Source: an uncultured Candidatus Saccharibacteria bacterium
GTDB lineage: Bacteria > Patescibacteriota > Minisyncoccia > Phycocordibacterales > CSBR16-119
Assembly: GCA_964490365.1 (NCBI GenBank)
Contig: CAZBAG010000002.1
Span: forward strand, 6,411-70,410
Direction: 5' to 3'
DNA: 64,000 bases
Both the position numbers and the translations under genes were made by a program. Shown piece by piece: positions 2,281-58,443 of the stretch (positions are counted from its first letter, which is position 1; each line of letters begins with the position of its first letter). A model generated the notes under the pieces. It saw nothing but the letters and a program-made list of their open reading frames with translations. It was not told the origin of the DNA and did not search any database.

Positions 2281-3975
2281 ATGAAAAAAGTACTGACGTT
2301 CATCTTCTTGATGATGACTTGCCTTGTGCATGCACAAGACCAGATCAACTGGGTTCCTTTCGAGTGTAACGACGGAAGTTCAACGAGATATGTCTCGCTT
2401 GATAATCGCAAGACGCTGTTCAAAGTGCATGCATCGTGGCCCGAAAATGAAACACGGCCAGTGGTGAAATGGATCAATAACAGCTACCCTGTTTCGATGG
2501 GAGATATGGCTGGTGGAGAATACTTCATCACACTAGAACATCCTGACGAGTGGATGAATCCCATCATTGGATATCAAAGCATCTACATCGTGAGTTTAGA
2601 AGTTCAAACAGGCATCTATCTTCGTTCCGAGGATTGTGATGTTCGCACTGAGCCAACACCTGTTGTTCAGACAACGATGAGTACCACTTCTTCTGAAGAT
2701 GGATCGTTACTCACGATAACTGGCATCTCACATACATCAGATATGACAGCGAGTGATGAAGATGGTTGGGGTGGACTCGGTATTCCGTGTGCATTCCATG
2801 AGATCTCTATCATCACTGATGTAGTCTCGGGAAACACGCTCGTATTCTCTGACACCACCATCTGCGTACCAGGTGTACCAACGGAGTTCTCTACTGAGTT
2901 TCTCTATGAGGGTCCGTTCGCAGAATTGTGCGCACGAAGCCGAATGGAAAAACGGAGCTTGAGTAATCCGCCCACGTTCCCGACACAAGTAATAGCCTCT
3001 GGTAATGAAGTGTGTCAGTTTGCGGGACAGATTGTGCCAAGTGTTCAGTTACTTTTTGACTGTGAAGACGACTTTGTCGGTCGTCCACCAACCACAGGAG
3101 GAAGAGAATTCTTGGTTCGATTCAACATCAACTGGCCAGGAGATGAGGAAGAAAAACTCATCTACTACAACGTACCTAATCATCAAACAGGCTGGGCGGA
3201 TCGCATCAGTAGTGGACAATTTGTTCACCGTGGTGAAAACTACATTGTGATACAGCACGATGATATACAGCCTGTGGTCGGAAGTACGTATTGGCAAGAA
3301 TGGCACAGTCGGTTGTCGTTCTACCATGATGGAGGCTTTATCGAAAGCCAACTGTTCATACCACAAACTGAACCAGCTCCTGTTGTTTATGGGGAATGGC
3401 TTCCAGCACATGGAGACTCTGTCTTATTCTCATACGGAGAACACTCTCAATTGATGGAAACGCTCGGATGGGGATCAATACCTGATATTTGCCCCGAGTA
3501 CGAGCTCATCCTCGTAAAGAGTGTGACGAACGTTGATGGCGAACACATTTTCACAGACACAGTCTTTGTTGCTCCAGGACTACCCATGAGCGAAGAAGAT
3601 GGATTTTCGTATACGGGCGAACTAACGGAACTCTGCCTGGAGGTGAACATGCAACGTGTCCACCTCTCTAGCTCACCTCACTTTGAGCCACAGACAGTGG
3701 TGGTCGTGGATGGTGGATGTATTTCCGTAGGAAGTCCGACGACAATTACCGAAACATCCATCGACAACCAAGTTCGAGTCTTTCCCAACCCAACAACAGG
3801 TCAGGAAGTTCGAATACTTGGTACAACATCAACGTCGAAGTGGTCTGTGTTCACCACGTCAGGGAAGCTCGTCTTCTCTGGTAACGGTGAACTAATCAAT
3901 ACTTCCCCGCTTTCTTCTGGTGTTTACATTGTGAACATCGAAAGTGTTGGAGTTGTCAGACTTATTCGACAATAA
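2281..3975 (+). CDS. Secreted protein with T9SS-type C-terminal sorting domain (564 aa)
   Basis: Signal peptide MKKVLTFIFLMMTCLVHAQ. The C-terminal VRVFPNPTTGQEVRILG...SGKLVFSGNGELINTSPLSSGVYIVNIESVGVVRLIRQ is a classic Por_Secre_tail-like pattern. Confidence 0.65.
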   Translation: MKKVLTFIFLMMTCLVHAQDQINWVPFECNDGSSTRYVSLDNRKTLFKVHASWPENETRPVVKWINNSYPVSMGDMAGGEYFITLEHPDEWMNPIIGYQSIYIVSLEVQTGIYLRSEDCDVRTEPTPVVQTTMSTTSSEDGSLLTITGISHTSDMTASDEDGWGGLGIPCAFHEISIITDVVSGNTLVFSDTTICVPGVPTEFSTEFLYEGPFAELCARSRMEKRSLSNPPTFPTQVIASGNEVCQFAGQIVPSVQLLFDCEDDFVGRPPTTGGREFLVRFNINWPGDEEEKLIYYNVPNHQTGWADRISSGQFVHRGENYIVIQHDDIQPVVGSTYWQEWHSRLSFYHDGGFIESQLFIPQTEPAPVVYGEWLPAHGDSVLFSYGEHSQLMETLGWGSIPDICPEYELILVKSVTNVDGEHIFTDTVFVAPGLPMSEEDGFSYTGELTELCLEVNMQRVHLSSSPHFEPQTVVVVDGGCISVGSPTTITETSIDNQVRVFPNPTTGQEVRILGTTSTSKWSVFTTSGKLVFSGNGELINTSPLSSGVYIVNIESVGVVRLIRQ

Positions 3976-4928: not shown

Positions 4929-6044
4929 CTATTGATTGAGAGCTTCAATACCAGCCAAGGTGCCAGAAGAAAGGAATTCAAGCATTGCCCCACCGCCCGT
5001 AGAGATAAATGAGATACTGTTTTCTAAATTCATTTCTTTAATCAACTTCACCGTATCTCCCCCACCAACAACAGAAAAAACTTTTGACTCTGCAATGGTT
5101 TTTAATATTTCCTTTGAAGACGTATCAAAACCTTCTTCATAAAGACCAAGTGGCCCATTCCAGAGAACTGTTTTTGAAGACCGAATCGTGTTTTTCAGGT
5201 CTTCCAAAGTTTCTGTACCCATGTCAGTAATCATGTCTGTTGGAAGTAAACTATTAGGAGCTTTTGTCGCACCAGTTTTCACTACAATATCAAACGGAAT
5301 TTTAATATTTGGTTTATCGAAAAACTTCGCCACGTTCACTGATTCATCTAACAGAGAAACACCTGTTTCAAATCCGATTTTCTTTATAAAATTGTTTGCT
5401 AACGCCCCGCCAATAAAGATATGGTCAGCAATTTTAGAAAACTTTTCGATCAAAGGAACTTTTGTTTCAAACTTTGCTCCACCAAGAATAAAAAGGAATG
5501 GTTTGTCTGGCGCATCTAGTTTTTTTAGGTTTTCTACTTCTTTTAAAAACCAAATACCCACATATGAAGGTAAGAATTTTGTTACTCCTGTAATCGATGC
5601 ATGTGATCTATGCGACACAGAAAATGCTTCATTCACATAGAGATCTGCTAAACTTGCTAAGTAGGCTGCAAATTCTTCAGTATTTTTTTCTTCACCTTCA
5701 TTACTTCTTAGGTTTTCAAGGAGAAGAATTTGTCCTTCACTCATATTTTCAGCTATTCCTAATACTTCTTCCCCGTAAAGCATTGGCACAAACGTAACTG
5801 GGATAAGTGTATTTAAATAGTCAGCCACAGGCTTTAATGATTCTTTCGGGTCGCGGCCAATATGACTAATGAGTACAATTTTTGCCCCCATTGTAGAGAG
5901 ATGCTTAATCGTATCAAGCGCTTTTTCTATTCGTGAACCTTCCGTAGGCCCAACAACACCGTCTTTACCGATAGGTACATTGAAATCAACTCGCACCAAA
6001 GCCGTTCTTCCTCGTAAGTTATTAATTTCAAGAATTGATTTCAT
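4929..6044 (-). CDS. pgk: Phosphoglycerate kinase
   Basis: The N-terminal RVDFNVP motif, FILGGAKFETK and the overall PGK architecture are present. The start codon overlaps the tpiA stop at 6044 (a conserved tpi-pgk arrangement). Confidence 0.9.
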   Translation of the reverse strand: MKSILEINNLRGRTALVRVDFNVPIGKDGVVGPTEGSRIEKALDTIKHLSTMGAKIVLISHIGRDPKESLKPVADYLNTLIPVTFVPMLYGEEVLGIAENMSEGQILLLENLRSNEGEEKNTEEFAAYLASLADLYVNEAFSVSHRSHASITGVTKFLPSYVGIWFLKEVENLKKLDAPDKPFLFILGGAKFETKVPLIEKFSKIADHIFIGGALANNFIKKIGFETGVSLLDESVNVAKFFDKPNIKIPFDIVVKTGATKAPNSLLPTDMITDMGTETLEDLKNTIRSSKTVLWNGPLGLYEEGFDTSSKEILKTIAESKVFSVVGGGDTVKLIKEMNLENSISFISTGGGAMLEFLSSGTLAGIEALNQ

Positions 6045-17288: not shown

Positions 17289-17315
17289 ATAGAAGAGCAA
17301 TATATAAAAAGAAAA

Positions 17316-17345
17316 AGGGCGTCTCGATGTCGAGACGCCCCGTTC
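17316..17345 (-). terminator. Rho-independent terminator of the GC-rich islet gene (gggcgtctcga-tg-tcgagacgccc, T tract in minus sense)
   Basis: Perfect 11-bp GC-rich inverted repeat. In minus sense it is followed by ctttttctttttatat. Confidence 0.6.
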
Positions 17346-17485
17346 TGTACACAACTCCACGTAGGGGGAGAATATGCAAAGAACACCCTATTCTTTGTGG
17401 CTTGTCGCCACGAACCTGGACTTACAGTCCATCTCGTGCACGACGCACTTTTGCGATCACGTACGCGCCACTCGGCACGCGATCA

Positions 17486-17998
17486 TCAGCATCGCAAGGG
17501 CACCGCCATCCAGGCAGGACGCCTCATCACCGACGCCTCAAGGCGCGGGTGCAGGGCTGCCATACTGGCAAGGCCGGTCGCATGTTCTTTGAGGTTATCG
17601 CTGATGTTCACTCGCATATTGCTGGCGCACGATCGTCGATCGCACCAGGCCCGCGGATGTTCACCATCGTACTTGCCCACGTTCACCAACTTGCTGCTTT
17701 CACTGCCGAAGAAGACCTTCTTGTTCAAGATATAATGCGTCGTCGCGACCGAATGGTCGGATCGATGCAACACGGTCTCCTGGCCGCTGGCTTGCACCGC
17801 TGTGCTGAAATAGTTGTTGGTGATGCTGACCTGGAAAACCCCTTGCTCGGGCATGATCAGGTTGGCCGATGCGCTGTTGTGGTCGTTTACTTCGATGTTG
17901 TCCACCTTCGGACCCGTGTCGGGTGCCGCGAAGGCGGGTTGGGGGCTGAACACCAAACAGGCGCCCAGCACCATGGTAAGGTGCAAGATCTTCTTCAT
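17486..17998 (-). CDS. Secreted hypothetical protein encoded on a ~57% GC islet (possibly 3'-degenerate)
   Basis: Signal peptide MKKILHLTMVLGACLVFSPQPAFAAPD and a plausible beta-rich mature region. The last ~60 aa are Arg/Ala-rich and may be frameshifted junk. The overlapping + ORF 17327..18034 is antisense noise. GC is far above the flanks. Confidence 0.4.
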   Translation of the reverse strand: MKKILHLTMVLGACLVFSPQPAFAAPDTGPKVDNIEVNDHNSASANLIMPEQGVFQVSITNNYFSTAVQASGQETVLHRSDHSVATTHYILNKKVFFGSESSKLVNVGKYDGEHPRAWCDRRSCASNMRVNISDNLKEHATGLASMAALHPRLEASVMRRPAWMAVPLRC

Positions 17999-18074
17999 GT
18001 GTATGGAAAAGATTGGTTTTGTCGGATTGTGTGAGCCCGACGTTCAAGTGCAAGTATAGCATATCTAAAAAACT

Positions 18075-18103
18075 TGTCAAGTCTTTTATTTCATGGTATA
18101 GTC
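18075..18103 (+). promoter_or_regulatory. Sigma70-like promoter for clpP (-35 TTGTCA, 17-bp spacer, -10 TATAGT)
   Basis: ttgtcaagtcttttatttcatggtatagt lies about 40 nt upstream of the clpP ATG. Confidence 0.5.
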
Positions 18104-18144: not shown

Positions 18145-18735
18145 ATGTTAATCCCAACAGTAATCGAAAAAACACATAACGGTGAACGAGCGTATGACAT
18201 CTACTCTCGCCTACTAAAAGAGCGGATTGTCTTTCTTGGCACAGGAGTTGAAGAAAATTCATCAAGTAACATTATTGCCCAACTTCTTTTCCTTGAATCT
18301 GAAGATCCTAAAAAAGATATTTATCTGTATGTAAACTCTCCGGGAGGAAACGTAAAAGATGGCCTTGCTATTATCGACACCATGAACCATATCAAACCAG
18401 ATGTTGCGACAGTATGTGTTGGTATGGCAGCTTCAATGGGAGCAGTCATCCTTTCTGCAGGAGCAAAAGGAAAACGATTTATCCTACCAAATGCAGAGGT
18501 GATGATTCACCAACCACTTGGTGGTGTAGAAGGACAAGCTTCTGATATTGCTATTACGGCAGACAGAATTATTAAGACAAAAGCGAAATTGAATAAGATC
18601 CTCGCAGAAAATACTGGACAAAAACTTGAAAAGGTTGAAAAAGATGGCGACCGAGATTACTGGATGGACGCAAAGGATGCATTAAAGTACGGCATCGTTG
18701 ATAAAGTGATGGAAAAACCAAAAACAAAGAAATAG
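18145..18735 (+). CDS. clpP: ATP-dependent Clp protease proteolytic subunit
   Basis: Strong ClpP signature (VNSPGG...[19 protein letters not shown]...MIHQPLGG). The catalytic Ser and His context is present. Confidence 0.92.
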
Positions 18736-23555: not shown

Positions 23556-25613
23556 TTAGGCCTGTTCTTTGAACATTCGCTCAAGCTCTTCAATTTCAGC
23601 ATCAAGCCGTTTACGTTCATCTTCCATGGTTTCTGCCTCGGTTTTTGAAGTAGGAGAAGATTCTAGGGCTTCTGACACTACTTCCGCTTGTTTTTCCATG
23701 ACAGGCCCTGGTTCAACTGGCTCAGGAGACGCCTCTACAGAACTTTCGTAGGTTATAGGGTATTCTTCTTTTGCTGGCTGACTTGACCCCTCTTCTTCTT
23801 GCATATACTCGTCTTTTGCCTTTTTAATAGCAAGGATTTGAGACGGATCGGAGGTAATAATTTGATCTTCAGTATATGAGGCAATGATTTTAATGGCTAC
23901 GTGCTTAAGACCCGCAAAGAAAATTCCTTCTCCAACTTCAGATTCAAGAAGTAGGTATTTTTCTTCATCGGTTAAATTAAACACTTTTTGCAAAGCATCA
24001 GCAGAGCTTGTCGATTGCTTTAAGAGAAGTTGCATCGATGAGTTTGTAACGATCGGCATGCCGTACGGAGAGTTAATAAAATCATTTACGTCCTGAGTAA
24101 TTGTTGAAAGGCCGAGATAATATTTTCGTCCTCGTTTTGCGATCGAATACAAGAAACTCGCCGTATCCTCAGATTTCATCATCCACCACGCCTCATCAAC
24201 GATCAGTAATCGTTTTTTTAGATTTTTTCTAACCGCGTTCCAGATAAAGTGCGTAATAATATACATAGCAACAGGTTTGAGGTCGTCTTCCATGTCTCGC
24301 ACAGAGAACACAATAAATTTTCTATTAATATCAACGTTTGTTGGCTGATTCAAGAAATTTTTCCATGTTCCTTGTGTATATTTTAAAAGTCGTGTTACGA
24401 CTGACTCACTTCCCTCGAGACCAGAAAGAACCATTTCAAAATCAGAAAGAAGCGGTGGTTCAATATTTGCAAAGTCTGACTCTGCAGAAATATCTTTCAT
24501 GGCATAGGTTTCCGTAATTGCCTTATCGATCAACGCATCTTCTTCTGGTGTAAGACCGCCGAGCATAATACGAAAGAGTCCAACAAGCTGAATCGTGTTT
24601 CCTCGAAGTACATCTTCAGGTGTTTCGTCGCCTGTCGGCATTGGAAGGTCAAATGGGTTGATATGATGCTCTGAAGAAAGCGAAATATTGAAATATCGTC
24701 CACCAATCGCCTCGGCCAAATATTCGTATTCTCGTTCAGGGTCAATAACAATCACCTCTGCATCAAACATAAGCGTTCGAAGAATTTCAAGTTTTGTTGA
24801 ATATGATTTACCGGAACCAGACTTCGCAAACGTTACCGAGTTATAGTTTTCAAGAGAAAATCGATCGAAAATAATGAGCGACGAGTTGTGTCGATTCACC
24901 CCATACAAAATACCCTTGTCTGAAGATAGGTCAAACGAAACGAATGGAAACAGACTTGAAAGTGGTTCAGAATTTAATTTTTGGTGAATTGCCAGAAAGT
25001 CATTCCCTGTTGGAATCACACTGTTGAATCCAACATCTTGCTGGAACAATGCTGGCTTAATGTATACGAGCTTTGATTCGAGCATTGATTTCACTTCGCT
25101 CTCTATTTTTGAAAGCTCTTTTTCATTGTCAGCATAGAGTGTGATATACAAACCAACATCAAACATTTTTTGTTGGGCTTGTTGTAAGCTGTCTCGAAGA
25201 CTTTCAAGATCTTGATACGCTGTATCAAGCACGGGGTCGCGAACCAAACCTTTTGATTCACGAACATTGATTTGACTTTGCACTTCAGCAACTTTCTTTT
25301 GGAATTTTTTTAGAATATCTTCAGTGTTGATGTCGTGAATATGAATTGCAACATCAAAAATTTTGTCGAGGTTAATGATTGGTGTAAACCAGTTATCTGA
25401 CAAATATCGTGGATATGAGATCACGAAATATGTTCTTGTTATTTTGTCACCAAGGTTAAGATTTTTTGGCGACACCTTAAGAGCAGAAGGAGCGAGAATA
25501 TCTTGAAGCTCAAGCGTAGCCGCTTCATAAATCTCTTTCGGCAACACTGGCATGATTTCACGCTTTTTTGATCCGGTTTTATTTGATTTTAAGATAGTAT
25601 CAAGAAAACCCAT
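23556..25613 (-). CDS. virB4: VirB4/TrbE/CagE-family type IV secretion ATPase (Gram-positive/CPR type)
   Basis: Walker A TFAKSGSGKSYSTK and Walker B LLIVDEAWWMM. The N-terminal LGDKITRTYFVISYPRYLSDNWF matches the conserved D/YPRYL..GW block of TcpF/PrgJ/TraE-type VirB4. It has an acidic C-terminal tail. Confidence 0.85.
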   Translation of the reverse strand: MGFLDTILKSNKTGSKKREIMPVLPKEIYEAATLELQDILAPSALKVSPKNLNLGDKITRTYFVISYPRYLSDNWFTPIINLDKIFDVAIHIHDINTEDILKKFQKKVAEVQSQINVRESKGLVRDPVLDTAYQDLESLRDSLQQAQQKMFDVGLYITLYADNEKELSKIESEVKSMLESKLVYIKPALFQQDVGFNSVIPTGNDFLAIHQKLNSEPLSSLFPFVSFDLSSDKGILYGVNRHNSSLIIFDRFSLENYNSVTFAKSGSGKSYSTKLEILRTLMFDAEVIVIDPEREYEYLAEAIGGRYFNISLSSEHHINPFDLPMPTGDETPEDVLRGNTIQLVGLFRIMLGGLTPEEDALIDKAITETYAMKDISAESDFANIEPPLLSDFEMVLSGLEGSESVVTRLLKYTQGTWKNFLNQPTNVDINRKFIVFSVRDMEDDLKPVAMYIITHFIWNAVRKNLKKRLLIVDEAWWMMKSEDTASFLYSIAKRGRKYYLGLSTITQDVNDFINSPYGMPIVTNSSMQLLLKQSTSSADALQKVFNLTDEEKYLLLESEVGEGIFFAGLKHVAIKIIASYTEDQIITSDPSQILAIKKAKDEYMQEEEGSSQPAKEEYPITYESSVEASPEPVEPGPVMEKQAEVVSEALESSPTSKTEAETMEDERKRLDAEIEELERMFKEQA

Positions 25614-46528: not shown

Positions 46529-46600
46529 AGAAATAGTTTACCATACGTTGTTTGTTTTAAGAGAAAGAAAAAGCCCGCTTGCAATTGCAAACAGGCTTCG

Positions 46601-46674
46601 TGGAGGGGACAGGATTTGAACCTGCGACACCAAGACTTATACCCTTGTGCTCTACCAGCTGAGCTACGCCCTCC
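46601..46674 (-). tRNA. tRNA, identity not confidently assignable (3' CCA encoded)
   Basis: The minus-strand sequence GGAGGGCGTAGCTCAGCTGGTAGAGCA...GCAGGTTCAAATCCTGT...CCA has canonical D and T arms. As I read it, the anticodon loop is GUAUAAG (anticodon AUA, implausible) and there is an acceptor-stem mismatch. I may have the register wrong. Check with tRNAscan-SE. Confidence 0.55.
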
Positions 46675-49267: not shown

Positions 49268-49873
49268 TCAAGCAATAATGCCATTCCTTTTCAGAAGAGC
49301 CACTTTGGCTTCAATATCTGATTTGGACAGGCCACGTTTTTGGAACTCGAGCCTTGCATCATGTTCACTACCGTACCATGTCTCGTGGTAAATATGAAAT
49401 CTCCACGATAACAGTGATATGACGAAGGAAAACAAAGCGCACAGAGTAAAAACCTGTGCTCTTGCGTAGAAACTGGGAAAATGACCATCTTCAGCTGTAT
49501 GAGATATAATGAGCATTCCCAGCAATAATAACAATGCGATGCTGTAAAGCAAGACCAGAATGCTAGGTAATCCGAGCACAGAGAATTTTCCCTTCTTGAT
49601 AATACCAACTCCATGGCCCGTCAACTGAGACGAAGCGTAGTACATCTTGAAAGACACGTAGGCACTAATCACTCCGACAATAAGAGCAAAACCTGGGTCA
49701 CCATCTTTTATCCATGTATACCCTATTGTCGATATCGCAATCACCAGCGCTATTAGAAATGGATGAAAGATGGTGTGCACCACTTTGCTATGTGACGGAA
49801 ACTTCATGAGATGAGAACTCATGAGTTGCTCGTATGTCATCCCTTTGTCTGATTTGTTTTGTTGCTTATTCAT
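49268..49873 (-). CDS. Four-TM membrane protein of unknown function (201 aa), co-oriented with and immediately downstream of the NYN gene
   Basis: Four predicted TM helices (FLIALVIAISTIGYTWI, FALIVGVISAYVSF, VLGLPSILVLLYSIALLLLLGMLII, VFTLCALFSFVISLLSWRF). The short C-terminal tail is SHOCT-like (DIEAKVALLKRNGII). Confidence 0.5.
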   Translation of the reverse strand: MNKQQNKSDKGMTYEQLMSSHLMKFPSHSKVVHTIFHPFLIALVIAISTIGYTWIKDGDPGFALIVGVISAYVSFKMYYASSQLTGHGVGIIKKGKFSVLGLPSILVLLYSIALLLLLGMLIISHTAEDGHFPSFYARAQVFTLCALFSFVISLLSWRFHIYHETWYGSEHDARLEFQKRGLSKSDIEAKVALLKRNGIIA

Positions 49874-49964: not shown

Positions 49965-50555
49965 TTACTCTGGTTTTACTCGACTTATCGTCACGTTTCC
50001 TTTTGTAGCTTGATGATGTTTCTGTTTTTTCTTATTTTGTTTTCGCGGTCGGAATCCAATCAAATATTTTTCTGGATGTTTTGATAAATCCATAAAATCG
50101 TCTGAGGCGTCTATCAGTCTTTGAGATGACGATTGCCCAAATGACGCAACCTCTACTTGAATACCAGAGTGAATTTGTAAATATTCAACAAGTGGAACAA
50201 AGTCTCCGTCTCCAGAAACAATAATCACGGCGTCTAGTTTTGGCGCCATGGTAATAGCATCAACAGCAAGACCGACATCCCAGTCACCCTTTTTAGATCC
50301 TCCAAAAAATACTTGTAGATCTTTTGTTTTTGTTTCAATACCATTCTTGTGAAGAGCTTCAAAGAAACCTTGTTCGTCTCCCGCTTCAGACGTAATCACA
50401 TACGCAATCGAGCGAATGAGTTTTCTACCCGCAAGAGCGTCTTTCACAATTTCTGCAAAGTTCACTTTGTGACCAAACAAATTTTTTGCTGAATGGTATA
50501 AATTTTGTGTGTCGATAAAAATTCCGACACGTTGTTCTGTATGTTTTATTATCAT
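49965..50555 (-). CDS. NYN-domain (LabA-like, PIN-like) predicted ribonuclease
   Basis: VGIFIDTQNLYHS at the N-terminus and the SGDGDFVPLVEYLQ motif with a conserved acidic cluster, typical of NYN/LabA (DUF88) nucleases. It has a basic C-terminal tail. Confidence 0.7.
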   Translation of the reverse strand: MIIKHTEQRVGIFIDTQNLYHSAKNLFGHKVNFAEIVKDALAGRKLIRSIAYVITSEAGDEQGFFEALHKNGIETKTKDLQVFFGGSKKGDWDVGLAVDAITMAPKLDAVIIVSGDGDFVPLVEYLQIHSGIQVEVASFGQSSSQRLIDASDDFMDLSKHPEKYLIGFRPRKQNKKKQKHHQATKGNVTISRVKPE

Positions 50556-54287: not shown

Positions 54288-54686
54288 ATGAAGAATAAAA
54301 ATCATAAATCAGAAAAACAAATTTTTAGTATTGTAAAAAGAGTACAGAGTTTTGAAAACGCTTTTTATGGTTTAAAAGTTTTTCTCACAACAACACACAA
54401 CTCTTGGATACAAATTAGTGTTGGACTGATCACTGTTTGGCTTGGATTTGTATTCGATATTTCACAGACTGAGTGGTTATTTGTAGTTCTCTCAATCGGT
54501 TTTGTATTGGCAGCAGAAGCATTCAACACCGCCCTTGAATTTGATATTGATCTTACCTCTCCGGAATATCACCAATTTGCAAAGTACACAAAAGACGTCG
54601 CTGCTGGCGCAGTACTTATTGCTTCTATTACAGCTTCAGTTGTAGGACTTATAATTTTCCTACCTAAATTCTTGATGGTGTTGTAG
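54288..54686 (+). CDS. dgkA: Diacylglycerol kinase (prokaryotic DgkA family)
   Basis: 132 aa, 3 TM, with SFENAFYGL and AAEAFNTALE signature segments. Confidence 0.65.
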   Translation: MKNKNHKSEKQIFSIVKRVQSFENAFYGLKVFLTTTHNSWIQISVGLITVWLGFVFDISQTEWLFVVLSIGFVLAAEAFNTALEFDIDLTSPEYHQFAKYTKDVAAGAVLIASITASVVGLIIFLPKFLMVL

Positions 54687-54770
54687 TTGGGTATACTTGA
54701 CAATATGGTATATTTATGTTATATTTAATCTTGAGAAACGCTTGTTCAATTAACAAAACCGTCTGTAGAG

Positions 54771-55175
54771 ATGAATAGCAACACCCTCCTAATGTCTCAG
54801 ACCGATCTCGTTAAAAAGATCGGTAAAGTGATCGCTGGAATGCAAATCCACAAAAACGAGAAGTCTACTGTGGAGAATCTCCGTGTTCTGCTGGGACAGA
54901 AGATCATTAGCCGAATGACAAAAAGCGAATATCTCCGGAATAAATTCGCCGAAATGTTCGTCGGGGAAGATGCAGACACGAACGAGTTCGCTGCCAAGTG
55001 CTTGGCCATTGCTTTCGACAACTACTTCAGCGAAAGGGTCAGAGATGCGGCAATGGGCCAACTCATGAATGCGCTCTGTCTGAGTAAGTTTGGATACTCT
55101 TTCGAGATCCAAACGATCGTAAGGAAGATGGCACCATTCGAATGGGAAGCCCCCGAAGGTATGGCCGCCGCATAG
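54771..55175 (+). CDS. Hypothetical protein (134 aa) with locally elevated GC
   Basis: ORF with its own strong terminator. No recognisable domains. GC is higher than the flanking core genes. Confidence 0.4.
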   Translation: MNSNTLLMSQTDLVKKIGKVIAGMQIHKNEKSTVENLRVLLGQKIISRMTKSEYLRNKFAEMFVGEDADTNEFAAKCLAIAFDNYFSERVRDAAMGQLMNALCLSKFGYSFEIQTIVRKMAPFEWEAPEGMAAA

Positions 55176-55194
55176 TTATATACAGATCATGACC

Positions 55195-55228
55195 GAAGCC
55201 CGCCCCATCGGCGGGCTTCTTTCTTTTT
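55195..55228 (+). terminator. Rho-independent terminator (gaagcccgcc-ccatc-ggcgggcttc with T tract)
   Basis: 10-bp GC stem followed by tttctttttat. Confidence 0.7.
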
Positions 55229-55294
55229 ATAATTGACAAAAATAACTTACTCAGTACTATCTATGTAAACATACATGTACTAATACAACAGAAA

Positions 55295-56266
55295 ATGGTA
55301 CGGATTGGAGTATTTTACGATGGTTTTCATTACGGCAAGATCAACAAGTACTACAAGTACGAACACTCTTGGAAAAGCCCTTTATCTTTCGAGGGTCTTC
55401 ATATGTATATCGAAAAACAAGTTTCTAGATGGGAAAGAAAAAACCCCTTAACTTGCAAAGTTGTTTCTGCTCACTATTTCAGAGGCAGACTCAGAACACA
55501 AGAGATCAAAGAAGATGCGTTGGATAGGCTGACCAAAGAGAGGGGGTTTGATGAAACTTTACAGTATCACAATATCACTACTCACTACCTCCCTCTTCGA
55601 GAAGACTCGAACGGCACCAAAAGAGAAAAAGGTATCGACAGCCTTATGGCAATTGAAGTACTCGATCAAGCGGTAATTAGGAAAGAACTCGATATTGTAG
55701 TTCTTATCACTGGTGATGTAGATCATGTAGGAGTTGTTCGAAAACTTCATAAGTATGGAGTGCCAACACTCCTTCTTGCATGGAATTTGGAATACAAACA
55801 TAGCGAAACCGGTGAGACCGAGTCAACGTGGACAAGTAAAGAACTTCAGGCGGAAGTCATGTCTTACTTTCCAATGGGCAAGATCATTGAACGTGGCATT
55901 GAGCAAAAAGACCCTCTCATTCTAAATATTTTTCGTAACGAGAAACCGATTCAACCAGAGGAGCGATCTGATACCGAAGAAAAAGTCGACGAAGTACCTC
56001 CAGAACTCTACGGAGCAGGTCAAATCTTTGACCCGAACATGCGACACTCAAGTACCATCTCTCGTGTCTTTACACAGCATGGGTACGGATTCATTCATTA
56101 TGAATATGGTGGCTTGTATTTTCATAGAAGCGATGTCGCGGGAGAAGTTCCATTTGAACAACTAAAGAATGGTGGTGGACTTACGTTTAAGATCATTCTG
56201 AACACGAAGATGCAGAGACAAGCTGTGGAGGTCTCTGTTGACGATACTGAACCCAAAAAAGAATAA
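55295..56266 (+). CDS. NYN-domain nuclease fused to a C-terminal cold-shock-like (CSD/OB) domain
   Basis: N-terminal VRIGVFYDGFHY and ITGDVDHVGVVRKLHKYGVPTLLLAW match the NYN/LabA pattern. The C-terminal GTISRVFTQHGYGFIHYEYGGLYFHRSDVAGE resembles the cold-shock-domain RNP1/RNP2 region. Confidence 0.6.
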   Translation: MVRIGVFYDGFHYGKINKYYKYEHSWKSPLSFEGLHMYIEKQVSRWERKNPLTCKVVSAHYFRGRLRTQEIKEDALDRLTKERGFDETLQYHNITTHYLPLREDSNGTKREKGIDSLMAIEVLDQAVIRKELDIVVLITGDVDHVGVVRKLHKYGVPTLLLAWNLEYKHSETGETESTWTSKELQAEVMSYFPMGKIIERGIEQKDPLILNIFRNEKPIQPEERSDTEEKVDEVPPELYGAGQIFDPNMRHSSTISRVFTQHGYGFIHYEYGGLYFHRSDVAGEVPFEQLKNGGGLTFKIILNTKMQRQAVEVSVDDTEPKKE

Positions 56267-56274
56267 CGACCTGA

Positions 56275-56306
56275 GGGTTTCGCTTTCGCGAAGCCCTTTT
56301 TCTTTT
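56275..56306 (+). terminator. Rho-independent terminator (gggtttcgc-tttcg-cgaagccc with T tract)
   Basis: 9-bp stem (one G-U) followed by tttttctttttaa. Confidence 0.6.
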
Positions 56307-56394
56307 TAACACGCCGATTAATATTTATAGACAAAAATATATTTTTCAGTATTATAAAAACGAACCAGCTCTTTGAGCACAAACCAAACCAAAC

Positions 56395-56913
56395 ATGCAA
56401 TTAAGGAAAAGGAATGGATTTCGTCGAAGAAATTACTCGAAACTCGTCCAGCCCCTCGAACAAAAAGAAGTGCCTCGAGTGGTAGTATGGAAAATGTCTT
56501 GGACACCCTCAACTGAAAAGGAGCGTGTCGACACTAGGGCCCTCCATTCACTTCGTGACAGATTACTAAGGATACGAGCAAGTCACTACGAGAAAAGACT
56601 CACCTTTTTGCTCCTTCTGGCATTCTTCAAGGAATTCCCCCTCGAAGAACTCGGGGAACGAACAATGAAAGAGATCGCTTTATCGATCTCACGAGGCTCG
56701 ATGAGTCTTGATGAGTCTTTGTCCATGCTTGAAATGTACGAGATAGCAACAGAAACCCTATCAAGGGCTGAAGTACTATGCGAGAAGCTCCAGCATGTTG
56801 GATTTCCTACAACAAAGGAAGGATTACAAAAAGCAAGCAGGCTTCACCTTGCCATCAAACATTGGACGAGGAGCCTGCAACAAGAAAGAAGGATTCACAA
56901 CATTGCTGCCTAA
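56395..56913 (+). CDS. Hypothetical protein (172 aa)
   Basis: ORF with a basic N-terminus and a strong terminator downstream. No recognisable motifs. GC is slightly elevated. Confidence 0.4.
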   Translation: MQLRKRNGFRRRNYSKLVQPLEQKEVPRVVVWKMSWTPSTEKERVDTRALHSLRDRLLRIRASHYEKRLTFLLLLAFFKEFPLEELGERTMKEIALSISRGSMSLDESLSMLEMYEIATETLSRAEVLCEKLQHVGFPTTKEGLQKASRLHLAIKHWTRSLQQERRIHNIAA

Positions 56914-56931
56914 GGCAGCACAGGTGCTAAA

Positions 56932-56966
56932 ATGCCCGACCTCACAGGTCGGGCATTTTCTTTTTT
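56932..56966. terminator. Bidirectional terminator (atgcccgacc-tcacag-gtcgggcat with T tract)
   Basis: 10-bp stem between the convergent 56395..56913 (+) and cca (-) genes. Confidence 0.7.
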
Positions 56967-58443
56967 ATTTCACATTATATTCTTTGCGGATTTTTTTTAC
57001 TTCAGCATCTTCAGCATCATCTTTTGCATCCTTCCCTGCTTCACCTAATGCCTGTAATCTTTCTTTCGGTAATGCAAAAAGTTCTTTTGATTTTTCTTCT
57101 AAATATTCTTTTGTATTTTTCATTGGATCATCTAACACCTCTTCAAGAAGTGTGTGGAGCACCCATCCCATTTCCCTTCCCGGCTTATACCCCATCTCCA
57201 CAAATCTATCTCCACTAATATTTAGCATGGCTACCGACACAGGATCTCGCATCACCTCTTCAATCATCGATTCATATTTACGAAGTCTATATGGCTCTTC
57301 TTTTGGCCTACCCATACCAATACGATCACAAATTCGCAGATTAACTAAATCCCACACATTCTCCTTCCCTACTTTTGCAACAAGTCTTCGTACTGCTGAG
57401 TGTGTGATCGTATCTGGATCAGCAAAAAACATATGGTGTCTGACAAGTTTTGTTACTGTTTCAGTAAGATCATTTGAAAGTCGCAGCCTTTCACAAATCT
57501 TTTTTGTTATTTTTGCACCAACAACTTCGTGTCCATAAAACGTATAGTCGTTTTTTTCTTTTGACCATTCGCGAGTTGCCGGTTTACCGATATCATGAAG
57601 TAATCCAGAAAGACGAATATGAAGTGGCCATTCTTTATCTGCTGCGTGTTGCATGGTGCGAAGATTGTGTTCCCAGACATCGTAGACATGGCTTCCATTT
57701 TGTTCTACACCAATTCCTATTTCAAGTTCTGGAATAATATATTTTAAAATCCCAAGCTTTTCAGAAAGAATAATTCCTGTCATTGGTTCTGAAGACATAA
57801 GCATTTTTAAAAACTCATCACGAATACGCTCAGCAGAAATATTTCCAAGTAAATCGGCATGGTCCACAATCGCGACCATCGTTTCATGAGAAATCGCAAA
57901 ACCATGTTGTGAAGCAAAACGCACTGCTCGCAAAATACGCAAAGCATCTTCTTTAATGCGCTCGGTTGGATTCCCTACCGCAATAATCATCTTGTCGTAA
58001 ATTGCCTGAACACCGTCATACAAATCGATCATCTCTTGCTTCGAGACAGAGTATGCAATGGCGTTCATAGTAAAATCTCTTCTTTTTAAATCATCTTCTA
58101 GGCGCTGACTAAAAGAAACGCTGTCTGGATGCCTGTTGTTTGAATAACTACCTTCAACTCGATATGGGGTCACTTCTACAACTTTAAGTTTTTCATCTTC
58201 AGCGTTTTCGTTTTTAACTCCAACCGTTCCAAAACTGTTTTCATAAAAAGATTCTGGAAAAAGTGATTGAATTTGTTCGGGAGTAGCATTTGTGGTTACA
58301 TCCCAATCTTGGGGAGTCTTCCCTGTTAAAAGATCTCGGACACACCCTCCGACAATAAAAGCTTCAAAGTTATGACTTTCTAGCTTTTCTGTGATTATTT
58401 TTATTTCTTTGGGAACATCAAAGATTTGCTTCATGATACACAT
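56965..58443 (-). CDS. cca: CCA-adding tRNA nucleotidyltransferase with HD domain
   Basis: GGCVRDLLTGKTPQDWDVTT polymerase-beta-type head motif, plus a C-terminal HD phosphohydrolase region (HDIGK). Confidence 0.85.
   Translation of the reverse strand: MCIMKQIFDVPKEIKIITEKLESHNFEAFIVGGCVRDLLTGKTPQDWDVTTNATPEQIQSLFPESFYENSFGTVGVKNENAEDEKLKVVEVTPYRVEGSYSNNRHPDSVSFSQRLEDDLKRRDFTMNAIAYSVSKQEMIDLYDGVQAIYDKMIIAVGNPTERIKEDALRILRAVRFASQHGFAISHETMVAIVDHADLLGNISAERIRDEFLKMLMSSEPMTGIILSEKLGILKYIIPELEIGIGVEQNGSHVYDVWEHNLRTMQHAADKEWPLHIRLSGLLHDIGKPATREWSKEKNDYTFYGHEVVGAKITKKICERLRLSNDLTETVTKLVRHHMFFADPDTITHSAVRRLVAKVGKENVWDLVNLRICDRIGMGRPKEEPYRLRKYESMIEEVMRDPVSVAMLNISGDRFVEMGYKPGREMGWVLHTLLEEVLDDPMKNTKEYLEEKSKELFALPKERLQALGEAGKDAKDDAEDAEVKKIRKEYNVK

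Follow-up and report, generated by a model that had tools for sequence, protein, structure and literature searches.

In this work, the interval between the core genes dgkA and cca was analysed in a 64,000-nucleotide (nt) stretch of an uncultured Candidatus Saccharibacteria genome (contig CAZBAG010000002.1); this whole stretch is referred to below as the window. The interval carries three consecutive genes, which encode an orphan protein of 134 amino acids (aa; p134), a 323-aa protein joining an NYN nuclease domain to a C-terminal cold-shock domain (CSD), and a second orphan of 172 aa (p172). Together, these genes are a strain-variable accessory island of a Patescibacteria genome (Candidate Phyla Radiation, CPR). 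The NYN-CSD fusion itself is already known; what is new here is a strain-variable island with swap-in cassettes whose products end in degron-like tails. This descriptive account, comprising the island, the family membership of the nuclease and the degron-like tails, is very probably correct. For the function of the whole we favour an accessory conflict-type ribonuclease (RNase) module with short-lived partner proteins, a reading whose likelihood we judge to be about evenly balanced. A preliminary description of this DNA, made from its letters alone, had placed three plus-strand genes of 134, 323 and 172 aa here, and their coordinates and strand were correct (Table 1).

A hypervariable island between conserved flanks

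Related contigs were obtained in three ways: L012 and L020 by scanning genomes, others by exact-protein look-ups or by searching metagenomes with cca. The flanking order of methyltransferase, exonuclease, dgkA, island and cca is kept in the relatives, with identities to the window of 70-98% across the flanks, among them 93% for S15, 90-91% for XerC, 89% for RNase Y (L012), 70-96% for dgkA and 73-88% for cca; in L012 and L020 the CCA-adding enzyme is 80% and DgkA 70% identical. The interval itself is hypervariable, so the earlier view of the genes as cargo-like units is borne out. If p134 is taken as an A cassette and p172 as a B cassette, the order is A-NYN-B in the window and in L104, A-B-NYN in L005 and L108, A followed by a 49-aa membrane peptide, p154 and NYN-CSD in L012 and L020, NYN-B in L095 and L097, and A-B with no NYN gene in L093. 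Of the 10 island variants with sufficient coverage of the dgkA-cca interval, 9 contain an NYN gene. As to the co-occurrence of homologues with the small open reading frames (ORFs), which the preliminary description had raised, NYN and a B-type orphan ORF (ORFan) occur together in most island variants, but L093 lacks NYN and the NYN-CSD genes of Bacteroidota lack such partners. More distant relatives, whose cca is 54-59% identical, have no island and no dgkA at this position. In one of these (L090, 2941-3448), the gap between cca and the exonuclease gene consists of ~500 nt with a G+C content of 0.47 and no long ORFs, and is possibly a non-coding RNA.

The NYN alleles fall into at least five types, which are 25-50% identical to one another; one allele is truncated to 232 aa, and several carry a C-terminal beta-rich domain that does not score as CSD. 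The NYN-CSD protein of L012 and L020 is 36% identical to that of the window and 86% identical to a Flavobacteriales protein, and its G+C content at third codon positions (GC3) is 0.70-0.77 in a genome background of ~0.27. This identity and composition together indicate a recent cross-phylum import. In the comparison of L095 with L097, the non-synonymous difference (dN) rises from 0.014 in cca and 0.063 in dgkA to 0.15 in NYN and 0.69 in B. The proportion of synonymous differences (pS) in B, 0.81, exceeds that of the flanks (0.46-0.60), which points to allele replacement rather than in-place divergence. The A cassettes of L012 and L020 are ~95% identical in DNA up to the ATG and again from GCTGCCGCATAA through the terminator, and the intervening 400-nt ORF body is unrelated. 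The right boundary of the swapped segment, GCTGCCGCATAA, is formed by the last three codons and the stop, GCT GCC GCA TAA. Judging from these alignments, alleles are exchanged between strains inside a conserved frame. L012 and L020 also hold an extra promoter-to-terminator unit (5065-5309 in each) that is absent from the window; its product is the 49-aa peptide with a C-terminal transmembrane helix (MNYEEVTAGY...GIGGGILLTFFVAMIIRDKIRK).

Transcription signals, composition and the cassette frame

Each of the three genes looks like an independent transcription unit. Sigma-70-like sites that match at 10-11 of 12 positions lie 5' of all three ORFs, and a G+C-rich hairpin with a T-run follows within ~20 nt 3' of each. 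The folding energies of the terminator RNAs are -21.6 kcal/mol for p134 (z = -5.05 relative to shuffles), -18.1 kcal/mol for NYN-CSD (z = -4.95) and -25.1 kcal/mol for p172 (z = -7.2); the preliminary claim of a strong terminator for every gene was therefore right. The promoter region of p134 is kept in L004 and L005, and its terminator in L004, L005, L012 and L020. The same arrangement of signals was seen in L012.

The G+C content of p134, NYN-CSD and p172 (0.481, 0.417 and 0.453) is higher than that of dgkA (0.348) and cca (0.383), as had been described, and the difference is sharper in GC3 (0.607, 0.392 and 0.451 relative to 0.278 and 0.282). The mean GC3 of the 52 window genes is 0.30 (standard deviation 0.08). 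Structured RNA genes were considered as the source of the high G+C content and rejected: a permissive Rfam scan of 54600-57100 returned terminator look-alikes only. At the gathering threshold, Rfam detected nothing but tRNAs in the whole window.

The B cassettes, whose products belong to families B1, B2 and B3, share a near-invariant block TAGACAAAAATA-N-TTTTTTCAGTATTAT-N6-GAACCAGCTCTTT upstream of the start codon. The block is near-invariant in nine loci whose B proteins are mutually unrecognisable. Within the 64 kb window, exact copies of the motif number two, against a chance expectation of 0.03, and each of them lies in the island; it is also found at corresponding positions in related loci. 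Furthermore, a copy that is 79% identical precedes the NYN-CSD gene of the window. As read from these comparisons, the cassette frame runs from an own promoter and 5' untranslated region (5'UTR) through a hypervariable ORF body with Ala-Ala at its C-terminus to an own terminator. No structured element was detected in the conserved B 5'UTR, where a local 4-bp hairpin was not significant (z = -1.0). The B-cassette 5'UTR (window 56362-56377) contains the strictly conserved GCUCUUUG, which resembles the r(GUCUUUA) co-crystallised with CspB according to the title of PDB entry 3pf4. In the fully specified reading set out below, the conserved B 5'UTR (GAACCAGCUCUUUGAG) might even be a target of the CSD nuclease.

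The NYN-CSD protein and its family

Residues 4-162 of the 323-aa protein match the Pfam family NYN (PF01936, LabA-like/COG1432) with 37.7 bits, above the cutoff of 24.2. The CSD (PF00313) scores 25.4 bits (E = 1.3e-5) and thus marginally misses the cutoff of 27 when the single sequence is used. The two-domain assignment of the preliminary description nevertheless holds, because the CSD is confirmed by the family profile and by the AlphaFold model. A profile built from 31 members matched Unr, CSDE1, CspB and TmCsp in the PDB (E = 4.5e-12 to 1e-6), and PF00313 is precomputed for about half of the homologues listed. The AlphaFold model on the family alignment has a mean predicted local distance difference test (pLDDT) score of 86.8 and consists of an alpha/beta domain (1-215), a disordered linker (218-242) and a five-stranded barrel (250-315); pLDDT is 93-97 for residues 1-60 and 121-210, and 68-91 for residues 61-120. 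In Foldseek, the modelled barrel superimposes on Bc-Csp and Bs-CspB with template modelling (TM) scores of 0.81-0.84 and a root mean square deviation of 2.0 A. The best viral fold matches of the N-terminal domain include proteins named 'NYN domain protein' and 'LabA-like/DUF88', and no solved NYN structure was detectably similar in sequence to this domain.

Four conserved acidic residues have been described in the NYN family (PMC5499597). D9, E111-K-G-I-D115, D141 and D143 are invariant in the 31 family members, the window protein included, and the PIN-like NYN site retains each of its four predicted catalytic acidic residues, so the nuclease site looks intact. In the same alignment, G265, F266 and F276 are invariant within the ribonucleoprotein (RNP)-like motifs GYGFI (residues 263-267) and LYFH (273-276). 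Based on the domain families, the protein is most likely an Mg2+-dependent endoribonuclease whose oligonucleotide/oligosaccharide-binding (OB) fold tethers single-stranded RNA to the active site.

The architecture had been called unusual in bacteria, and this did not hold. At a limit of E <= 1e-3, 3,452 proteins were retrieved by a protein search, and many homologues are already named 'uncharacterized LabA/DUF88 family protein/cold shock CspA family protein' by the Joint Genome Institute (JGI). The best 120 of the 3,452 are 296-395 aa long and cover 93-100% of the query at 33-40% identity (E = 1e-58 to 1e-50). In a scan of species-representative genomes, relatives are encoded in at least 535 confirmed stretches, nearly all of them from Bacteroidota (Flavobacteriales, Saprospiraceae, Cytophagales, Chitinophagaceae); a few Treponema, Ignavibacteria and Chitinivibrionia are further taxa among the matches listed. 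The window protein is, by its sequence, a new and divergent member of a known but uncharacterised family. In the PIN-superfamily classification, the NYN.COG1432/LabA-like proteins are listed as 'function unknown' and the fusion with CSD is not mentioned (PMC5499597), and no published experimental study of an NYN-CSD fusion was found in the literature.

No conserved operon partner of NYN-CSD was found in 74 Bacteroidota-type loci, where only close relatives share synteny and most neighbours lie on the other strand. Neighbours ending in Ala-Ala make up 3 of 278 in those loci, which is the background rate. Two Chitinophagaceae loci (L044, 5549-5905; L046, 5464-5847) have a PemK/MazF-looking ORF of 118-127 aa (GEVWLVDLP...) directly upstream of NYN-CSD on the same strand, with the C-terminus ...QTAA or ...DKAA.

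The preliminary description had also counted the protein as the second of its kind, and a stand-alone NYN protein of 196 aa is indeed encoded in the window (49965-50555, minus strand; Pfam NYN, E = 5e-35). Its gene belongs to the conserved core, with 69-91% identity in relatives. Downstream of it lies an ORF of 201 aa (49268-49873, minus strand) with no family match and a GC3 of 0.45, which ends in ...GIIA and not in Ala-Ala.

The orphan proteins and their C-terminal tails

Proteins p134 and p172 are fast-evolving and lineage-specific. Among 5.8 billion clusters, only three proteins are related to p134, namely itself and two of 89% and 74% identity. Its ratio of non-synonymous to synonymous substitution rates (dN/dS) of 0.14-0.25 denotes purifying selection on a protein-coding gene; the ratio for p156 is 0.06. 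A word-indexed search with p172 returned p172 itself only, and an exhaustive phmmer search of 1.84 billion representatives added five relatives of 145-179 aa at 30-45% identity. Those with enough flanking sequence (L104, L105, L106 and L108) lie at the same locus, and the full-length alignable reading frame is kept in the family. Hence dN/dS establishes p134 as coding, and conservation across a family speaks for p172. For neither of the two was a homologue detected away from this locus. No significant match to Pfam, NCBIfam, PADLOC or PHROG was obtained for either protein. In p172, a basic disordered N-terminus precedes a helical body, which the AlphaFold2 model (moderate pLDDT of 69.6) presents as an all-alpha bundle with no PDB fold match at E < 1. 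A basic N-terminal motif M-x-x-[RK]-[RK]-N is common to the B proteins. No homology was found among the A and B ORFan families by BLASTP and phmmer beyond close relatives, and they are therefore counted as about nine families and not as one.

All small island proteins end in a small hydrophobic dipeptide. Across these roughly nine families, Ala-Ala closes 16 of the 21 proteins, and the remainder end in VA (three), SV (one) and FA (one). In the window, the tails are GMAAA (p134) and HNIAA (p172); in relatives, they are HLEAA, VSRAA, ESAAA, QAQAA, AAAAAAA, VALAA, NRMAA, SDKAA, RKLAA, YRLAA, LLAAAA, HGLAA, VLTAA and YGKAA, and those other than Ala-Ala are GMVA, RARVA, HSLVA, IASV and PQFA. Ala-Ala often follows Leu, Ala, Met or Arg (RLAA, GLAA, VALAA, LLAAAA, GMAAA), which is a degron-like, non-polar context. 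None of the NYN proteins ends in Ala-Ala, nor does any of the 49 other window genes. Among the six-frame window ORFs of at least 50 aa, 2 of 251 have this ending, and these are p134 and p172. By a greedy gene call in nine related CPR loci, it was observed in 3 of 115 genes, island ORFs only, and the background in Bacteroidota loci is 9 of 736 (Fisher's exact test for enrichment, p = 8e-12 and 8e-23).

The Ala-Ala tail is kept in the p172 relatives despite their 30-45% identity; the C-termini of the five are LAA, AAAA, LVA, LAA and TAA. Moreover, the alanine and stop codons differ among cassettes (GCC GCA TAG, GCT GCC TAA, GCT GCA TAA), and the differing alanine codons indicate that selection acts on the protein. 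In an E. coli screen, terminal Ala-Ala is critical for ClpXP degrons and is present in 91% of the 100 strongest C-terminal tags (PMC10862746). Because terminal Ala-Ala is critical in such ssrA-like degrons and ClpP is encoded in the window (18145-18735), we infer that the Ala-Ala-tailed proteins may be intrinsically short-lived.

Proposed mechanism and alternatives

We hypothesize that the NYN-CSD nuclease would cut single-stranded RNA held by the CSD, and that the short-lived ORFan proteins would modulate or restrain it or act in the same conflict. The activity of the nuclease would then change once synthesis of the short-lived proteins stops. Such a logic would be like that of toxin-antitoxin or abortive infection systems, built from separately transcribed cassettes. 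A number of observations weigh against this proposal. Typical toxin-antitoxin genes share an operon, whereas here every gene comes with a promoter and terminator of its own; in L093, A and B cassettes occur with no NYN gene; the B3 family is paired with four different NYN types, which gives no sign of strict co-variation. In Bacteroidota, NYN-CSD genes are solitary by the hundreds, with no such partners or conserved operon, so toxicity of the nuclease is not required. Nothing convincing was matched in PADLOC or PHROGs: the best PADLOC-DB matches are HEC-09 (E = 8e-4, 17 bits) and an NYN model (E = 2e-3), none was obtained for p134 or p172, and no known defence system was recognised. As to the tails, terminal Ala-Ala in E. 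coli is necessary but not sufficient alone for degradation (PMC10862746), ClpX was not seen in the 64 kb window, and no transfer-messenger RNA (tmRNA), hence no tag sequence, was found in the window or related loci. The high GC3 of the ORFans is also left without explanation by this proposal. The functional coupling of the small proteins to the nuclease is, taken by itself, rather doubtful. Still less likely is the fully specified form, in which a modular CPR RNase conflict system of a kind not described before would place an NYN-OB-fold nuclease under one or two constitutively unstable proteins with genomically encoded ssrA-like Ala-Ala degrons, each expressed from a conserved frame of its own, whose ORF bodies are exchanged within these frames under diversifying selection.

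The strongest alternative, which we regard as possible although short of probable, is that there is no functional link at all. The NYN-CSD protein would then be an ordinary enzyme of RNA turnover or processing, presumably like its Bacteroidota homologues, located in a recombination hotspot that collects unrelated ORFans, and the Ala-Ala tails would be a general property of this class of ORFans, serving for example tight abundance control unrelated to the nuclease. Several of the points just listed speak for it, namely the separate transcription units, the ORFans without NYN in L093, the finding of B3 with several NYN types, and a widespread family with no conserved partner, limited synteny and neighbours often on the opposite strand. 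On the other hand, NYN persists in 9 of 10 sufficiently covered variants despite complete turnover of alleles and gene order, the promoter motif of the window NYN gene is a copy of the B type, and the NYN alleles diverge ~10x faster than cca, which is unexpected for a housekeeping enzyme. A classical type II toxin-antitoxin pair of the VapBC kind, with a PIN-like NYN toxin and a DNA-binding, protease-labile small antitoxin, appears improbable. Although a putative PIN-fold nuclease adjoins small proteins with degron-like tails and the alleles diversify rapidly, the genes do not form an operon, each having its own promoter and terminator, and no DNA-binding or antitoxin domain was found in p134 or p172 with Pfam, NCBIfam or PADLOC. 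Nor did the p172 model match a PDB fold; moreover, the gene order is variable, one variant lacks NYN, and the Bacteroidota homologues are solitary.

The origin of the island as cargo or a remnant of a phage or mobile element, integrated near tRNA genes and cca, is a shade less probable again. The elevated G+C content, the tRNA genes within 2 kb and the cross-phylum transfer of one NYN-CSD allele (86% to Flavobacteriales, GC3 0.70-0.77) would suit it, but no integrase, att-like repeats or phage genes occur in or beside the island, and synteny of the flanks is perfect throughout the relatives. A recombinase of the XerC/D type lies 2.5 kb upstream and is a core gene (90-91% conserved), matches to PHROG are insignificant, and among 2.9 million viral contigs none contained a relative of p134 or p172 and only two a relative of NYN-CSD. 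We find it hardly credible that the small ORFs are not genes and that their Ala-Ala endings arise as a side effect of some DNA motif under conservation, for instance a terminator or a site of recombination. The last codons and stop (GCTGCCGCATAA) do form the conserved right boundary of the segment swapped between L012 and L020; yet dN/dS is low (0.14-0.25 for p134 and 0.06 for p156), the p172 relatives keep a full-length frame at 30-45% identity, the codons for alanine and stop vary from cassette to cassette, VA or SV tails occur as well, and no Rfam family matched. Integron-like cassettes were also considered and rejected, since the units bring promoters of their own and have neither an integron integrase nor attC-like sites at their flanks. 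The same applies to a diversity-generating retroelement: whole ORF bodies differ and not particular codons, and no reverse transcriptase is among the annotated genes near the island. The conflict-type RNase module with short-lived partners remains the reading that we favour.

Features of the island and other genes of the window

Table 1. Features of the dgkA-cca interval, in window coordinates.
Feature	Position	Strand	Evidence or remark
dgkA	54288..54686	+	Conserved left flank of the island; Pfam DAGK_prokar, E = 6.8e-30
Promoter-like site of the first cassette	54697..54725	+	TTGACA-17-TATATT with TG extension; 11 of 12 positions match
p134, 'A' cassette ORFan, 134 aa	54771..55175	+	C-terminus ...GMAAA
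Intrinsic terminator of p134	55195..55219	+	10-bp stem, 8 GC pairs, T-run
Island-type promoter motif TTGACAAAAATA-N7-CAGTACTAT	55233..55260	+	Upstream of the NYN-CSD gene
NYN-CSD gene, 323 aa	55295-56266	+	
NYN (LabA-like, predicted PIN-fold) nuclease domain with C-terminal extension, residues 1-215	55295..55939	+	Pfam NYN; conserved residues
Disordered acidic linker of variable length, residues 218-242	55946..56020	+	pLDDT < 50; length-variable region of the family alignment
Cold-shock (OB-fold) domain, residues 250-315	56042..56239	+	GYGFI and LYFH motifs; Pfam, profile, Foldseek
Intrinsic terminator of the NYN-CSD gene	56273..56298	+	Hairpin, folding
'B' cassette promoter and conserved 5'UTR block TAGACAAAAATA..CAGTATTAT-N6-GAACCAGCTCTTT	56328..56374	+	Comparison of 9 loci
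p172, 'B' cassette ORFan, 172 aa	56395..56913	+	C-terminus ...HNIAA
Strong terminator hairpin between convergent p172 and cca	56929..56959	.	14-bp stem
cca (CCA-adding enzyme with HD domain)	56965..58443	-	Conserved right flank; Pfam PolyA_pol, PolyA_pol_RNAbd, HD

Elsewhere in the window, an insert with a G+C content of 0.56 separates trigger factor from clpP (17300-18080). The product of its minus-strand gene (17486-17998) is 170 aa long, starts like a signal peptide (MKKILHLTMVLGACLVFSPQPAFA...) and matches no Pfam or Rfam family. A terminator-like hairpin lies nearby at ~17318-17345, and the insert is probably another horizontally acquired single-gene unit. Two G+C-rich (0.46) plus-strand genes with signal-peptide-like starts lie at 967-2145 and 2281-3975. 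The latter carries Por_Secre_tail, the C-terminal sorting domain of type IX secretion (32.7 bits), which is typical of Bacteroidota and odd in Patescibacteria; this fits gene flow from Bacteroidota, as for one NYN-CSD allele. A 685-aa TraG/VirB4-like P-loop ATPase (23556-25613, minus strand; TraG P-loop domain, E = 1e-26) sits in a long minus-strand block with proteins of 724 and 779 aa that have no Pfam match. ARAGORN predicted a tRNA-Tyr with the unusual anticodon ATA at 46600-46674 (minus strand), whose Rfam score of 44.1 bits is the lowest of the six tRNAs.

Significance and comparison with known systems

A function assigned to NYN-CSD would annotate thousands of proteins. The island is a clean example of strain-level hypervariability in reduced Patescibacteria genomes, including an import from Flavobacteriales, with a PIN-like RNase at the centre of its turnover. 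The design rule of own promoter, variable body, Ala-Ala end and own terminator is independent of the protein family and suggests programmed instability of an orphan set. Should the nuclease indeed be under the control of the small proteins, the island would represent a novel design for a circuit resembling toxin-antitoxin or abortive infection systems, and it would offer a handle on the conflict systems of uncultivated CPR bacteria.

Like VapBC-type type II toxin-antitoxin systems (a PIN-domain RNase with a labile antitoxin), the island has a predicted PIN-like nuclease beside small, predicted-unstable proteins, with strain-variable and fast-evolving alleles. The island differs from them in its separate units and variable gene order, no DNA-binding antitoxin fold was detected, and the nuclease and the ORFans each also occur alone. 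With the ssrA-tag-like degrons recognised by ClpXP (...LAA-COOH), the island proteins share the terminal Ala-Ala; here, however, the tail is encoded in the gene and borne by a set of unrelated ORFans at one locus, as a predicted degron in a CPR bacterium. Natural proteins with ssrA-like C-terminal degrons include CtrA. The closest relatives of the nuclease are the Bacteroidota NYN-CSD proteins (PF01936 with PF00313, COG1432 branch), which have the same NYN domain with extension, variable linker and C-terminal CSD and are collinear over the full length; the catalytic and structural residues are invariant, also in the window protein. The latter is at most 33-40% identical to them and belongs to a hypervariable Patescibacteria island, whereas their loci have no degron-tailed ORFans. 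LabA of Synechococcus and MARF1/limkain b1 (NYN with RRM and OST-HTH/LOTUS) also join an NYN nuclease to an RNA-binding domain, and such appended domains are thought to give the nuclease its specificity (PMC5499597). The RNA-binding module of the window protein is a cold-shock OB fold and not LOTUS or RRM. RNase II and RNase R (CSD with RNB and S1) use a cold-shock domain as the RNA-binding module of a ribonuclease as well (PMC4229858), but their catalytic domain is unrelated, an RNB exonuclease as opposed to an NYN endonuclease, and their CSD lies at the opposite end of the protein.

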